From assembly GCA_003221515.1 (NCBI GenBank), contig QHSI01000104.1, positions 32,568 to 96,567 on the forward strand: a DNA stretch of 64,000 nt, read 5' to 3'. The notes beneath the pieces are model-generated. The model ran no database searches. It was not told the DNA's origin and worked only from the letters and a program-made list of their open reading frames with translations. Origin of the DNA: Candidatus Rokuibacteriota bacterium. Its GTDB lineage: Bacteria > Methylomirabilota > Methylomirabilia > Rokubacteriales > CSP1-6. A program made the position numbers and the translations under genes. Within the stretch, counting starts at the first letter, position 1, and every line of letters begins with the position of its first letter. This document shows positions 5,143 through 9,876 of this stretch, one piece after another.

Positions 5143-6300
5143 ATGAAGCTTGAGCTGAGCGCGGAGCAGCAGATGATCCAGGCGATGGCGCGGGAGTTCG
5201 CCGACTCGGCGATCAAGCCCATCGCCGCCGAGATCGACCGCGACGCGCGGTTCCCGCACGAGACCGTCAAGCGCATGGGCGAGCTCGGCCTCATGGGGAT
5301 CGCGGTTCCGGAGCGATGGGGAGGCAGCGGCGCCGACGCGGTGTCCTACGTGGTGGCGCTCGAGGAAATCGCCCGGGCGTGCGCGAGCCACGCCGTGGTG
5401 ATGTCGGTCAACAACTCGCTCTACGGTGACCCGCTGTTGCGCTACGGCACCGACGTGCAGCGCGAGCGCTTTCTGAAGCCCGTGGCCTCCGGCCACACCC
5501 ACGGGTGCTTCGCGCTCACCGAGCCCCAGGCCGGGTCGGACGCGACGAACCAGGCGACGCTGGCGGTCCGCGACGGCGCTGACTACATCGTGAACGGTCG
5601 CAAGCGCTTCATCACCACGGGTCGCGAGTCGTCGTTCGCGCTGGTCTTCTGCCAGACTGACCGCGCCGAGGGGCATCGCGGCATCTCCGCGTTCGTGGTC
5701 GAGAAGGGCGCGCCCGGCTTCACGGTCGGCAAGACGGAGGACAAGCTCGGCATTCGCGCCTCCGACACCGCCGAGCTGATCTTCGAGGATTGCCGCGTGC
5801 CGGCGGCGAATCGGCTCGGCGACGAAGGCCAGGGATTCAAGATCGCGATGACGGCGATCGACGGCGGACGGATCGGGATCGCCGCCCAGGCGGTCGGGAT
5901 CGCGGCCGGCGCGTACGAGCGCTCGGTCGCCTATGCCCGCGAGCGGAAGGCGTTCGGTGTTCTCATCGGCCAGCACCAGATGGTCCAGTGGATGCTGGCC
6001 GACATGGCGACGGCCATCGACGGCGCCCGGCTCCTGACCCTGCGCGCCGCCACGCTCAAGGACGGCGGCCGGCCCTACCGGACCGCCGCGGCGATGGCCA
6101 AGCTCTTTGCTTCCGAGACGGCGATGAAGGTCGCGACGGACGCGATCCAGGTCCACGGCGGCTACGGCTTCATCAGGGAGTACGAGGTCGAGCGCGCGTT
6201 CCGCGACGCGAAGGTCACGCAACTCTATGAAGGCACGTCGCAGATCCAGAAGCTCGTCATCGCGCGCGACCTCCTGGGAGACCACGATGGCCGAGCCTGA
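5143..6300 (+). CDS. Acyl-CoA dehydrogenase (short/branched-chain type; likely butyryl/isobutyryl-CoA dehydrogenase)
   Basis: 386 aa; ACAD N-, middle- and C-domain motifs ('[13 protein letters not shown]', '[13 protein letters not shown]', '[15 protein letters not shown]'); ATG at 5143 after etfA. Confidence 0.9.
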
Positions 6301-7900
6301 GCGCCCAGCGGAGCGCCCCGTGCGCTTTGAATCGCTGTCCGGAATTCCGCTCGACCCGCTGTACTCACCGGCGAGCCTGCCGGGCTGGTCGTACGACGAG
6401 AAGCTCGGACGCCCGGGCGAGTATCCGTTCACCCGCGGCGTCTATCCGACGATGTACCGGGGCCGGCTCTGGACCATGCGCATGTTCGCCGGCTTCGGGC
6501 GCCCGGAGGACACGAACGCGCGGTTCAAGTACCTGCTGGCCCAGGGCCAGACCGGCCTGTCGACGGCCTTCGACATGCCCGCGCTGATGGGCTACGACGC
6601 GGACCATCCGCGATCGCGGGGCGAGGTCGGCAAGGAGGGCGTGTCGATCTCCACGCTCGACGACTTCGAGCGGCTCTTCGCGGACATTCCGCTGGGCGAC
6701 GTCACCACCTCGATGACGATCAACTGCACCGCGTCGGTGGCCCTCGCGATGTACCTGGCGATCGCCGAGAAGCAGGGCGTGGCCTGGGACCGAGTCGGCG
6801 GCACGATGCAGAACGACATGCTCAAGGAGTTCATCGCGCAGAAGGAATGGATCTGCCCGCCGGACCCGGCGGTCCGGATCGTGGTGGACATGATCGAGTT
6901 CACGGCCAAGCACGTGCCGCGCTTCAACCCGGTCTCGATCTCCGGCTACCACATCCGTGAAGCGGGCGCGACGGCGGTGCAGGAGCTCGCGTTCACGCTG
7001 GCCGACGGGCTCGGATACGTCGAGGCGGCGGTGACCCGCGGACTCGACATCGACAGCTTCGCGCCGCGGCTCTCGTTCTTCTTCGACATCCACAACGACT
7101 TCTTCGAGGAGATCGCCAAGCTCCGGGCCGCCCGACGCGTCTGGGCGCGGTTCATGAAGGAGCGCTTCGGCGCGAAGAAGCCCGAGTCGATGCGGCTGCG
7201 CACCCACACGCAGACCGCCGGCGTCTCGGCGACCGCCCAGCAGCCGCTCAACAACATCGCGCGGGTCGCGCTGCAGGCGCTGGCCGCGGTTCTCGGCGGG
7301 GCGCAGTCGCTCCACACCAATTCCTACGACGAGACGTGGGCGCTGCCGACCGAGGACGCGGTGACCGTCGCGCTGCGGACCCAGCAGATCATCGCCGACG
7401 AGTCCGGGGTGGCGCTGACGATCGATCCGCTCGGCGGCTCGTACTACCTCGAGACGCTGACCGACAAGATGGAAGCCGGCGCCCTCGCGTACATCGGGAA
7501 GATCGACGCGATGGGCGGCATGGTTCGCGCGATCGATGCCGGCTATCCGCAGCGGGAGATCGCGGACGCCGCCTATCACAACCAGCTTCTCGAGGACCGC
7601 AAGGAGAAGGTCGTCGTCGGCGTCAACAAGTACGTGATGGACGAGGAGCGTCCGATCAACTACCTCAAGATCGACGCCGCGGTCGAGCACGACCAGGTCC
7701 AGCGCGTCCAGCGCTTCAAGGCCGCCCGCGACATGCGGAGGGTCGAGCGCAGGCTCAAGCAGCTGGCCGACGCGTGTCGCGGTCGCGACAACGTGATGCC
7801 CGTGCTGGTCGACGCGGTGAAGGATTACGTGAGCCTGGGCGAGGTCTCCGACGTGTATCGCCAGGCCTTTGGGCTCTATCGTGAGCCCATCATTTTCTGA
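6286..7900 (+). CDS. icmA: B12-dependent acyl-CoA mutase large (substrate-binding TIM-barrel) subunit; active-site signature Phe/Gln (MRMFAGF; FIAQKEW) indicates isobutyryl-CoA mutase type rather than methylmalonyl-CoA mutase
   Basis: ~538 aa aligned by eye to MCM catalytic domain; positions equivalent to MCM Tyr89/Arg207 are Phe/Gln as in IcmA; no B12 domain on this polypeptide; start ATG 6286 overlaps upstream ACAD stop. Confidence 0.75.
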
Positions 7901-7972
7901 GAAATCAGCTGAAGGGTTGCCGCCCGACCGCCGGGCGCGGATGCGCCCCGGCGGCGAACAAGAGGACAGAAC

Positions 7973-9040
7973 ATGAGTGAGCCGATCAGGATCAGTCGCG
8001 CGAGCGTGAAGAAGCCGAAGCCGAAGGACCGCGAGCTGTCGTTCGGGACGGTCTTCACCGACCACATGTTCGTCATGGACTTCCAGGAGGAGAAGGGCTG
8101 GTACGATCCGCGGATCGAGCCCTACGGGCCCCTCTCCCTGGACCCGGCGGCGGCGGTACTCCACTATGCGCAGGCCGTGTTCGACGGGCTCAAGGCCTTC
8201 CGCGGAAACGACGGCAAGGTCCGGCTGTTCAGACCCCAGAAGCACCTGGATCGCATCAATATCTCGGCCAAGCGGCTCTGCATCCCGCCGCTCGACCCCG
8301 AGCTGGCGCTCAAGGCGCTGGTGACGCTCGTCGGCATCGAGAAGGACTGGGTGCCGTCGACGGTGGGGACGTCCCTCTACGTCCGGCCGACGATCATCGC
8401 GAACGAAGCGTTCCTGGGTGTGCGCCCGGCGAAGTCCTACCTCTACTACGTCATCCTGTCGCCGGTGGGCGCGTACTACCCCGAGGGGATGAACCCGGTG
8501 AAGATCCTCGTCGTCGACCAGTTCGTGCGCGCGGTCGAGGGCGGCGTGGGCGGCGTCAAGACGGGCGCCAACTACGCGGCGAGCCTCTACGCGTCCGAGG
8601 ACGCCAAGCACGAGGGCTTCACGCAGGTGCTGTGGCTGGACGGCCGCGAGCGCAAGTACATCGACGAAGTCGGCACGATGAACATCATGCTGAAGATCGA
8701 CGGCGAGGTCATCACGCCTCCGGCCGGCGGCACGATCTTGGCCGGCGTCACCCGCGATTCGGCGCTCGCGCTGATGCGCGAGTGGGGCCTGCGGGTCAGC
8801 GAGCGGCAGATCGCGATCGACGAGGTCGCCGCGGCGGCTCGCCGGGGAACGCTCGAGGAAGTCTGGGGCACCGGGACCGCCGCGGTCATCTCCCCGGTGG
8901 GCGAGCTCGCGTACAAGGGCGAGCGCATCGTGGTCAACGGCGGCAAGATCGGTGCGCTCACCAAGAAGCTCTACGACGCGATCGTCGGCATCCAGTACGG
9001 CACCGCGCCGGACACCCACGGTTGGACGGTCGTGGTCTAG
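7973..9040 (+). CDS. ilvE: Branched-chain amino acid aminotransferase (class IV PLP enzyme)
   Basis: 355 aa; 'FTDHMF...[33 protein letters not shown]' and '[14 protein letters not shown]' typical BCAT. Confidence 0.9.
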
Positions 9041-9049
9041 GAGATTCCG

Positions 9050-9472
9050 ATGGCCGACTGCGTGTTCTGCAAGATCCGCGACGGGCAGATCCCCTCGACC
9101 AAGATCTACGAGGACGAGCGGACGCTCTGCATCATGGACATCAATCCGCTCAACGCCGGCCACTGCCTGGTGCTCACCAAGACGCACGCGGCGACGATCT
9201 TCGAGGCCGAGCTCGTCGATCTGCAGGCCGCGATCACGACGGCCCAGCGCGTGGCCACGGCCCAGCGGCGCGCGCTCAAGCCGGACGGCCTGAACATGCT
9301 GCAGGCCAACGGCCCCGCCGCCTTCCAGTCCGTGCCCCACTTCCACCTGCACCTGATCCCGCGCTGGACCAACGACGGCAAGGGATTCGACTGGAAGCTG
9401 GTGCCCGGCGACCGCGACCGGATCGCCAAGGTCGGCGAGCAACTGCGCGCCGAGCTCGGAGGTGGCCGTTGA
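9050..9472 (+). CDS. HIT-family (histidine triad) nucleotide hydrolase
   Basis: 140 aa; '[12 protein letters not shown]' N-terminus and 'HFHLHLIPR' histidine triad. Confidence 0.8.
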
Positions 9473-9876
9473 TGGCCGAGCGCTCGATCCGGGTCGTCGT
9501 CGCCAAGCCGGGCCTCGACGGGCACGACCGCGGCGCCAAGATCGTGGCGCGGGCGCTGCGCGACGCCGGGTTCGAGGTCATCTACACGGGGCTCCACCAG
9601 ACGCCGGAGCAGATCGTGGCCACGGCGGTCCAGGAAGACGCCGACGCCATCGGGCTCTCCGTGCTCTCCGGCGCCCACAACTACCTCTTCAAGCGCGTGC
9701 TCGATCTGCTCGCGGAGCAGGGCGCCGGGGACATCGCGGTCTTCGGCGGCGGGATCATCCCGCCCGAGGACATCGCCGCCCTGAAGGCGATGGGCGTGAA
9801 GGAGCTGTTCACGCCCGGCACCTCGACCCAGGACATCGTCCGCTTCGTCCGCGAGCACATCCGCGCCGCGGTCTGA
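9472..9876 (+). CDS. icmB: B12-binding small subunit of the split acyl-CoA mutase (IcmB-type)
   Basis: 135 aa; '[33 protein letters not shown]' contains the DxHxxG cobalamin-binding motif; ATG overlaps HIT stop (TGATG). Confidence 0.8.

Follow-up and report, generated by a model that had tools for sequence, protein, structure and literature searches.

A 64,000-nucleotide stretch of contig QHSI01000104.1 from a Candidatus Rokuibacteriota bacterium (positions 32,568 to 96,567; hereafter the window, numbered from its first letter) encodes the large, substrate-binding subunit (mutL) and the small, B12-binding subunit (mutS) of an acyl-coenzyme A (acyl-CoA) mutase. The pair probably constitutes a stand-alone, adenosylcobalamin (AdoCbl)-dependent isobutyryl-CoA mutase (ICM) of the IcmAB type in an uncultured soil Rokubacterium, a reading to which we assign a probability of roughly 0.65. 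The substrate assignment is based on active-site residues and gene context. The enzyme is of a known kind, and the contribution made here is a correction of annotation, not a new kind of system.

Active site of the large subunit

The mutL gene (6287–7900, + strand) encodes an IcmA-like protein of 537 residues that matches PF01642 over residues 17–529 (725 bits) and TIGR00641 (757 bits). An earlier note on this DNA had placed the gene at 6286–7900; its end stands, and its start moves to the ATG at 6287. The note had also read Phe and Gln, in the motifs MRMFAGF and KEFIAQKEW, at the positions of Tyr89 and Arg207 of methylmalonyl-CoA mutase (MCM). Both motifs are present (TMRMFAGF with F67, and KEFIAQKEW with Q185), and alignments with human MCM, M. 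tuberculosis MCM and E. coli Sbm agree in placing F67 opposite Tyr of the RQYAGF motif and Q185 opposite Arg of (V/C)RNTY. A passage of PMC7238569, citing Jost et al. 2015, takes Tyr and Arg at this pair of sites as the mark of an MCM. The signature columns used below are mutL residues 67, 94 and 185, equivalent to MCM Tyr89, Asp117 of HcmA (2-hydroxyisobutyryl-CoA mutase) and MCM Arg207, and the signature of mutL is F67/A94/Q185. The catalytic Tyr–His pair is kept (SGYHIREAG). Replacement of the carboxylate-holding Tyr and Arg by Phe and Gln therefore points to an uncharged C4 acyl group and to isobutyryl-CoA being interconverted with n-butyryl-CoA.

Reference large subunits were taken from annotated public records. 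The F/A/Q signature is shared with four Streptomyces IcmA orthologues (P0122, P0132, P0156 and P0220; 566 residues, 52% identity to mutL), which some sources name ‘isobutyryl-CoA mutase large subunit’; these were fetched from the database with an IcmA query (up to 96% identity), and only the database sequences were used. Plasmid-borne copies from Deinococcus and Natronorubrum, each 59% identical to mutL, also have F/A/Q. The five MCM-type references have Y/A/R, and comprise the mutases of Ilyobacter polytropus (56% identity; in an operon with MeaB, methylmalonyl-CoA epimerase and decarboxylase genes) and Brevibacillus (56%; adjoining epimerase and carboxyltransferase genes), two Streptomyces plasmid copies (50–51%) and E. 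coli Sbm (45.5%). HcmA of Methylibium petroleiphilum and of Xanthobacter (Xaut_5021), encoded in typical hcl-meaH clusters, has I/D/Q and 51% identity. In Xaut_5043, which is 40% identical to mutL, the columns of residues 67 and 185 hold Leu and Asn, and the middle column is poorly aligned; we take Xaut_5043/5044 of Xanthobacter autotrophicus Py2 to be the pivalyl-CoA mutase PcmA/PcmB (reportedly, Kitanishi et al. 2015). The prior view of Phe/Gln as an isobutyryl-CoA mutase signature is upheld by the kind of alignment proposed for checking it: the mutL triplet equals that of Streptomyces IcmA, unlike those of MCM, HcmA and PcmA.

All 120 closest homologues of mutL in the database (85–99% identity) have F/A/Q. 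Nearly all of those named by organism are metagenome bins of Rokubacteria or Methylomirabilota, and the named homologues are labelled methylmalonyl-CoA mutase, its N-terminal domain, or acyl-CoA mutase large subunit family protein. The best match among solved structures is HcmA (4R3U, 584 bits), against 489 bits for human MCM and 270 bits for IcmF; no stand-alone IcmA structure is among the Protein Data Bank (PDB) matches of mutL, so this ranking says little on substrate. With NF006944, the MCM equivalog, mutL scores 622 bits, below the 876-bit cutoff, and with NF045497 (IcmF) it scores 347 bits against a cutoff of 1500 bits.

The small subunit

The mutS gene (9472–9876, + strand) encodes an IcmB-like, B12-binding protein that matches PF02310 and TIGR00640 (169 bits) and contains DGHDRG, a DxHxxG motif. 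These coordinates and the motif are as previously given; the earlier length of 135 residues included the stop codon, and the protein has 134. A mechanically called open reading frame (ORF) at 9462–9893, over mutS, is in the wrong frame. The top PDB matches are 2YXB (157 bits) and then HcmB (4R3U_C, 147 bits), and mutS is 88–92% identical in the Rokubacteria loci described below. The mutase is formed from two separate genes and not as a single chain with B12, G-protein and mutase domains. In the proposed mechanism, mutS would bind AdoCbl through the His of DxHxxG, and mutL would bind the acyl-CoA.

Phylogeny and profile comparisons

Trees were built by neighbour-joining from Kimura distances, with 100 bootstraps. 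Placement inside the true MCMs, which the earlier note had named as the outcome that would speak against its reading, was not seen: in the first tree, of 95 large subunits, the Y/R MCM group has 84% bootstrap and mutL lies outside it. For wider sampling, 1.84 billion cluster representatives were searched, yielding 150 relatives. In the second tree, of 127 near-full-length sequences, every F/A/Q sequence falls within one region, in which IcmA, HcmA and, with differing signatures, three representatives are also placed; the clade of mutL adjoins Streptomyces IcmA, but at only 7% bootstrap, with deep bootstraps of 2–8%.

When scored with F/Q and Y/R profiles, mutL prefers F/Q by 44 bits, in a comparison that assigns the IcmA and HcmA controls wrongly. 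Streptomyces IcmA differs from MCM consistently at 34 columns; mutL equals MCM at 18 of these and IcmA at 11, and at the six columns where HcmA agrees with IcmA against MCM, it matches HcmA/IcmA at five. These comparisons suggest a mutL scaffold roughly equidistant from IcmA, HcmA and the split MCMs, with a substrate pocket that appears IcmA-like.

The 150 nearest representatives of clusters at 50% identity (P0241–P0390) include 67 Y/A/R, about 20 F/A/Q and 2 I/D/Q sequences. Several dozen others have different triplets, such as V/V/V, V/V/R, I/I/E, N/V/A, A/L/R and Q/D/H, some of them in truncated or possibly misaligned sequences. If the alignment holds, these odd triplets suggest many uncharacterised acyl-CoA mutase specificities.

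Operon structure

The operon structure and its conservation, like the gene identities and the active-site residues, are observed directly. The G+C content of the window is approximately 70%, and true reading frames were chosen by third-position GC. A single run of genes occupies the + strand from 2598 to 13353, their ends overlapping or almost abutting, in the order gntR-etfB-etfA-ACAD-mutL-ilvE-HIT-mutS-ACAD (ACAD, acyl-CoA dehydrogenase), and is completed by an ABC ATPase and two permeases (to 13353).

The first gene of the run, gntR (2598–3356), encodes a GntR/UTRA (HutC-type) transcriptional regulator (PF00392 and PF07702), and its stop overlaps the start of etfB in an ATGA read directly at 3353. 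The two subunits of an electron transfer flavoprotein (ETF) follow, β encoded by etfB (3353–4132; PF01012) and α by etfA (4145–5125; PF01012 and PF00766). ACAD1 (5143–6300), of the butyryl-CoA/short-chain type, has three ACAD Pfam domains, and its stop codon (6298–6300) overlaps the start of mutL. Between the mutase subunits lie ilvE (7973–9040), encoding a branched-chain amino acid aminotransferase of class IV, type II (NF009897 equivalog passed with 460 bits, cutoff 307; TIGR01123, 386 bits), and a gene for a HIT-family (Hint-like) hydrolase with an HxHxH motif (9050–9472; PF01230, 85 bits), the stop of which overlaps the mutS start in a TGATG read directly at 9470. The top PDB matches of the HIT protein are generic HIT proteins, and it is, as predicted from sequence, a generic Hint-like hydrolase without an evident role in the cluster. 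ACAD2 (9878–11023), of the short-chain type by its NCBIfam matches, overlaps with its stop the GTG of the downstream ABC ATPase (GTGA at 11020, read directly). Profile matches confirm both genes previously described as separating the subunits and, likewise, the etfBA and two ACADs already mentioned. A crotonase-type enoyl-CoA hydratase gene (21021–21827, + strand; PF00378) is parted from ACAD2 by a transporter block of approximately 10 kb.

A scan of the window for promoters and terminators found no more than in shuffled sequences, and a GC-rich hairpin between mutL and ilvE is not significant (z = -1.7). The scanned sequence has no tRNA and no Rfam match, and therefore no cobalamin riboswitch.

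Upstream of gntR, a Glycos_transf_3 gene (1391–2476, + strand; TrpD or nucleoside phosphorylase-like) is conserved in place in 4/4 Rokubacteria loci, with 78–84% identity.

Conservation of the gene neighbourhood

One genome per species was scanned with mutL peptide patterns, including the F- and Q-bearing motifs, which identified at least 599 relatives; the neighbourhood and signature counts refer to the best 80 of these. F/A/Q is present in 80/80 loci, which span Rokubacteria, Binatia, Myxococcota, Acidobacteriota, Armatimonadota, Desulfobacterales, Bathyarchaeia and others. A small subunit is encoded within 5 kb of the large subunit gene in 46 loci, an ACAD in 24, an ETF in 11 and MeaB in 9.

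The full order from gntR to the second ACAD is kept in three Rokubacteria loci (L012, L014 and L015), with ilvE in the same position in each, so that the ilvE–HIT insertion is a fixed lineage feature and not an assembly accident. A fourth, L013, keeps the order up to mutL, where the locus ends, and gntR is conserved upstream in L012–L015. Conservation of the HIT gene at this position is confined, among the 80 loci, to Rokubacteria. Crotonase orthologues (67–72% identical) lie directly 3′ of ACAD2 in L014 and L015, and one gene further on in L012. The Binataceae core consists of ACAD1-type, mutL, mutS and ACAD2-type genes with no insertion.

The earlier statement that no MeaB-like chaperone adjoins the mutase was also correct. 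No ArgK/MeaB Pfam match occurs in the scanned ORFs of the window, and when all six frames of the 64-kb window were searched by tblastn, six MeaB queries, drawn from E. coli, Ilyobacter, Natronorubrum, Deinococcus and Xanthobacter, gave no match at E ≤ 1e-8; none is encoded within 10 kb in L012–L015 either. Many Myxococcota have an orphan large subunit, and no small subunit or MeaB is encoded within 10 kb of the IcmA orthologue of Streptomyces albidoflavus. Given these orphan genes and the counts across the 80 loci, split and interrupted subunits with no neighbouring MeaB are ordinary for IcmAB-type enzymes.

Among the Myxococcota, L043, L046, L047, L049 and L052 (Polyangium sp. 15x6) encode an F/A/Q large subunit and lack, in the surrounding 10 kb on either side, a gene for the B12-binding small subunit; the partner of such orphans must lie elsewhere. 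In other phyla, the subunits are separated by a membrane protein of approximately 200 residues (L027 and L045), a hotdog/thioesterase-like protein (L057) or an alpha/beta-hydrolase-like protein (L036), and the gap between them seems to be a frequent insertion point. L015 (DATIWG010000040.1) is titled Nitrosotalea sp., an archaeon, and has the full Rokubacteria-type operon with an 80% identical large subunit. L016 and L055 bear the title Enterobacteriaceae and have large subunits 66–70% identical to mutL, that of L016 grouping with soil-phylum (Binatia) sequences. All three look like mis-binned or mislabelled metagenome bins.

Proposed pathway

We infer the substrate, the direction of flux and the tie to valine as follows. 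Valine would be deaminated by IlvE, and isobutyryl-CoA would be supplied by an unlinked 2-oxoacid dehydrogenase, not in the window. The mutase would turn isobutyryl-CoA into straight-chain butyryl-CoA, from which the two short-chain ACADs and the non-bifurcating-type ETF would produce crotonyl-CoA. This would be hydrated by the conserved crotonase and enter ordinary β-oxidation to acetyl-CoA.

The nearest structures of the partner enzymes fit such a route. The top PDB matches of ACAD1 are C. difficile Bcd (5OL2_C, 438 bits) and rat and human short-chain acyl-CoA dehydrogenase (SCAD; approximately 405–410 bits), versus 268 bits for the isobutyryl-CoA dehydrogenase ACAD8. Those of ACAD2 are Bcd (4L1F), a T. 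thermophilus ACAD and SCAD, with ACAD8 clearly less similar. EtfB matches human and Paracoccus ETF-β best (169 and 157 bits), against 116 bits for the bifurcating Etf of 4KPU/5OL2, and the ETF thus appears closest to the non-bifurcating type. The crotonase matches short-chain enoyl-CoA hydratases generically. IlvE, the ACADs, the ETF and the crotonase together plausibly fit a sequence from valine through 2-oxoisovalerate, isobutyryl-CoA, butyryl-CoA and crotonyl-CoA to 3-hydroxybutyryl-CoA.

In S. albus, valine induces the ICM gene 5.2 log2-fold and the isobutyryl-CoA pool and the butyryl-CoA pool grow (PMC8176718), so a link between ICM and valine is known in principle. The route from valine through isobutyryl-CoA to butyryl-CoA, as previously suggested, is plausible in light of this induction and of the ACADs, ETF and crotonase; the window lacks genes both for its conversion of 2-oxoisovalerate into isobutyryl-CoA and for the last β-oxidation enzymes. 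Searches of the window by tblastn found no branched-chain 2-oxoacid dehydrogenase (BCKDH) E1b or E2, Hbd, PduO-type adenosyltransferase, epimerase or PCC-beta.

Alternative readings

Several points weigh against an isobutyryl-CoA mutase. To our knowledge, this clade contains no assayed enzyme. Identity to Streptomyces IcmA, at 52%, is not above that to the split MCMs (56%), with HcmA at 51%, and the deep nodes of both trees have negligible bootstrap. With the active-site motifs masked, the F/Q profile is ahead by 16 bits, in a test that is weak because, in leave-out controls, it puts Streptomyces IcmA and HcmA on the wrong side. BCKDH, 3-hydroxybutyryl-CoA dehydrogenase, adenosyltransferase and MeaB are all absent from the window. 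Finally, IcmF shares the F/Q pair and acts on isovaleryl-CoA and pivalyl-CoA as well (PMC10481361), so F/Q fixes no single substrate.

This breadth of IcmF also favours the main alternative, namely that the mutase acts on a related uncharged short acyl-CoA: 2-methylbutyryl-CoA/n-valeryl-CoA from isoleucine, isovaleryl-CoA/pivalyl-CoA from leucine, or, as a broad enzyme, the derivatives of all three branched-chain amino acids via IlvE. IlvE acts on Val, Leu and Ile, the mutase is flanked by two different short-chain ACADs, and identity between the clade and assayed IcmA is only 52%. In PcmA, however, the dedicated pivalyl-CoA mutase, Leu and Asn occupy the two sites, and mutL shares both F/A/Q and AQKEW with Streptomyces IcmA; another substrate seems unlikely. 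A bolder proposal is that the Rokubacteria/Binatia-type F/Q mutases form a separate subfamily and are not IcmA orthologues, that the conserved ilvE–HIT operon is the main route by which these abundant soil bacteria break down valine, through isobutyryl-CoA and butyryl-CoA to acetyl-CoA, bypassing methacrylyl-CoA and propionyl-CoA, and that the co-translated HIT protein serves as a mutase accessory factor where no MeaB is linked; we give this combination little credence. Flux in the reverse direction, with butyryl-CoA from fatty-acid oxidation or imported butyrate converted into isobutyryl-CoA for iso-branched starter units or, via IlvE, for valine, seems to us a little less probable again. The three acyl-CoA ligases encoded in the window and its several ABC uptake systems would suit it, as would the orphan large subunits common in Myxococcota, and a passage of PMC7764203, citing Matthies and Schink, describes the ICM reaction as freely reversible. 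Yet the conversion of isobutyryl-CoA into 2-oxoisovalerate needs a reductive, ferredoxin-dependent carboxylation that is not encoded here, and the partners (ACADs, non-bifurcating-like ETF and crotonase) are catabolic.

The annotated function fares worse. Every source names the homologues as methylmalonyl-CoA mutase or its family, and mutL is 56% identical to the split MCMs of Ilyobacter and Brevibacillus; but an MCM with unusual active-site residues is very improbable given the loss of the carboxylate-binding Tyr and Arg, the NF006944 score below cutoff (622 against 876 bits), the position of mutL outside the Y/R clade and the lack of an epimerase or propionyl-CoA carboxylase in the window. 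A 2-hydroxyisobutyryl-CoA mutase would explain the top structural match to HcmA (4R3U, 584 bits) and the GntR regulator upstream, as in hcm clusters. HcmA ranks first by default, however, as no IcmA structure is among the matches, its Ile90 and Asp117 are Phe and Ala in mutL, and no 2-hydroxyisobutyric acid (2-HIBA)-CoA ligase or MeaH gene stands beside the mutase, unlike in the M. petroleiphilum and Xanthobacter clusters; of the readings weighed here, we hold this one the least credible. Two other identities were considered and rejected: PcmAB, as the mutase has F/Q in place of the Leu/Asn of Xaut_5043 and is 40% identical to it, and IcmF, as there are two separate genes, an NF045497 score of 347 against 1500 bits and no G-domain in the window.

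Significance

If the pair is an isobutyryl-CoA mutase, the MCM label on these genes in Rokubacteria, Binatia, Acidobacteriota, Myxococcota and others would lead to propionate/succinate interconversion being wrongly inferred in metabolic reconstructions. The operon suggests instead that valine or free isobutyrate may be fed into straight-chain β-oxidation through a B12-dependent step in these soil bacteria, the carbon metabolism of which would then be tied to cobamide supply. It would provide a small, conserved set of genes with which an ICM-dependent valine shunt could be tested in bacteria other than Streptomyces. A literature search on Rokubacteria and this pathway returned nothing relevant among the results listed.

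Other genes of the window

The block inserted between ACAD2 and the crotonase gene (11020–20965) contains the two permeases and the ABC ATPase, which is of the NitT/TauT type, as well as an NMT1 binding protein, two ORFs without a family match and, on the opposite strand, an Opp/Dpp-type ABC system. The two ORFs (17186–18523 and 18524–19981, both on the − strand) are adjacent paralogues of 445 and 485 residues with very high third-position GC, each with a signal-like hydrophobic N-terminus and, around residue 330, a hydrophobic helix; no Pfam or NCBIfam match was obtained for either. A homologue (56–58% identity) lies directly after ACAD2 in L012 (9614–10888, − strand).

Further downstream, at 22554–42658, AMP-binding acyl-CoA ligase genes (28409–30526 and 36228–38198) are interspersed among three Liv-type ABC uptake systems, and this region looks devoted to organic-acid uptake and activation. 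A second crotonase gene is located at 27030–27827, and a third AMP-binding acyl-CoA ligase gene at 48787–50661 (− strand). At 42659–44280 (+ strand), a bacterial-type globin gene (42659–43126) is directly upstream of a third ACAD (approximately 43141–44280). On Xanthobacter pXAUT01, a globin gene (Xaut_5029) lies between the two mutase clusters.

Comparison with known systems

PcmA/PcmB resembles the window pair as a split AdoCbl mutase for an uncharged branched acyl-CoA, and differs in its specificity residues (Leu and Asn), in its 40% identity and in an adjacent MeaB-like gene. IcmF (PDB 4XC6), which reportedly has the Phe/Gln pair, is predicted to share the reaction; it is one chain of approximately 1100 residues with a MeaB-like domain, whereas no G-domain is encoded anywhere in the window.

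HcmA/HcmB of Aquincola and Methylibium shares split subunits with other genes between them, a GntR regulator nearby and, in HcmA, Gln at the Arg207 position. It differs in Ile90 and Asp117, where mutL has Phe and Ala, and its clusters include 2-HIBA-CoA ligase, MeaH and adenosyltransferase, which the window cluster lacks; the nearest AMP-binding ligase gene starts approximately 18 kb downstream of mutS. The split MCM of the Ilyobacter polytropus succinate-to-propionate operon has the same two-subunit architecture, and its 56% identity to mutL is among the highest for functionally anchored references. It has Tyr/Arg in the active site, and its partners are MeaB, epimerase and decarboxylase/carboxyltransferase, not ACAD, ETF and IlvE.

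With IcmA/IcmB of Streptomyces (S. cinnamonensis), the window pair shares separate large and small subunits, the DxHxxG motif of the small subunit, F/A/Q together with AQKEW in the large subunit, and the absence of MeaB near the large subunit gene (as in S. albidoflavus). The physiological tie of Streptomyces ICM to valine (PMC8176718) is a further likeness. Streptomyces IcmA is longer (566 against 537 residues) and 52% identical to mutL, and its gene, as seen in S. albidoflavus, has unrelated neighbours and is remote from any ACAD, ETF or ilvE gene, whereas mutL of the window lies inside a catabolic operon with ilvE, the HIT gene, two ACADs and the ETF.

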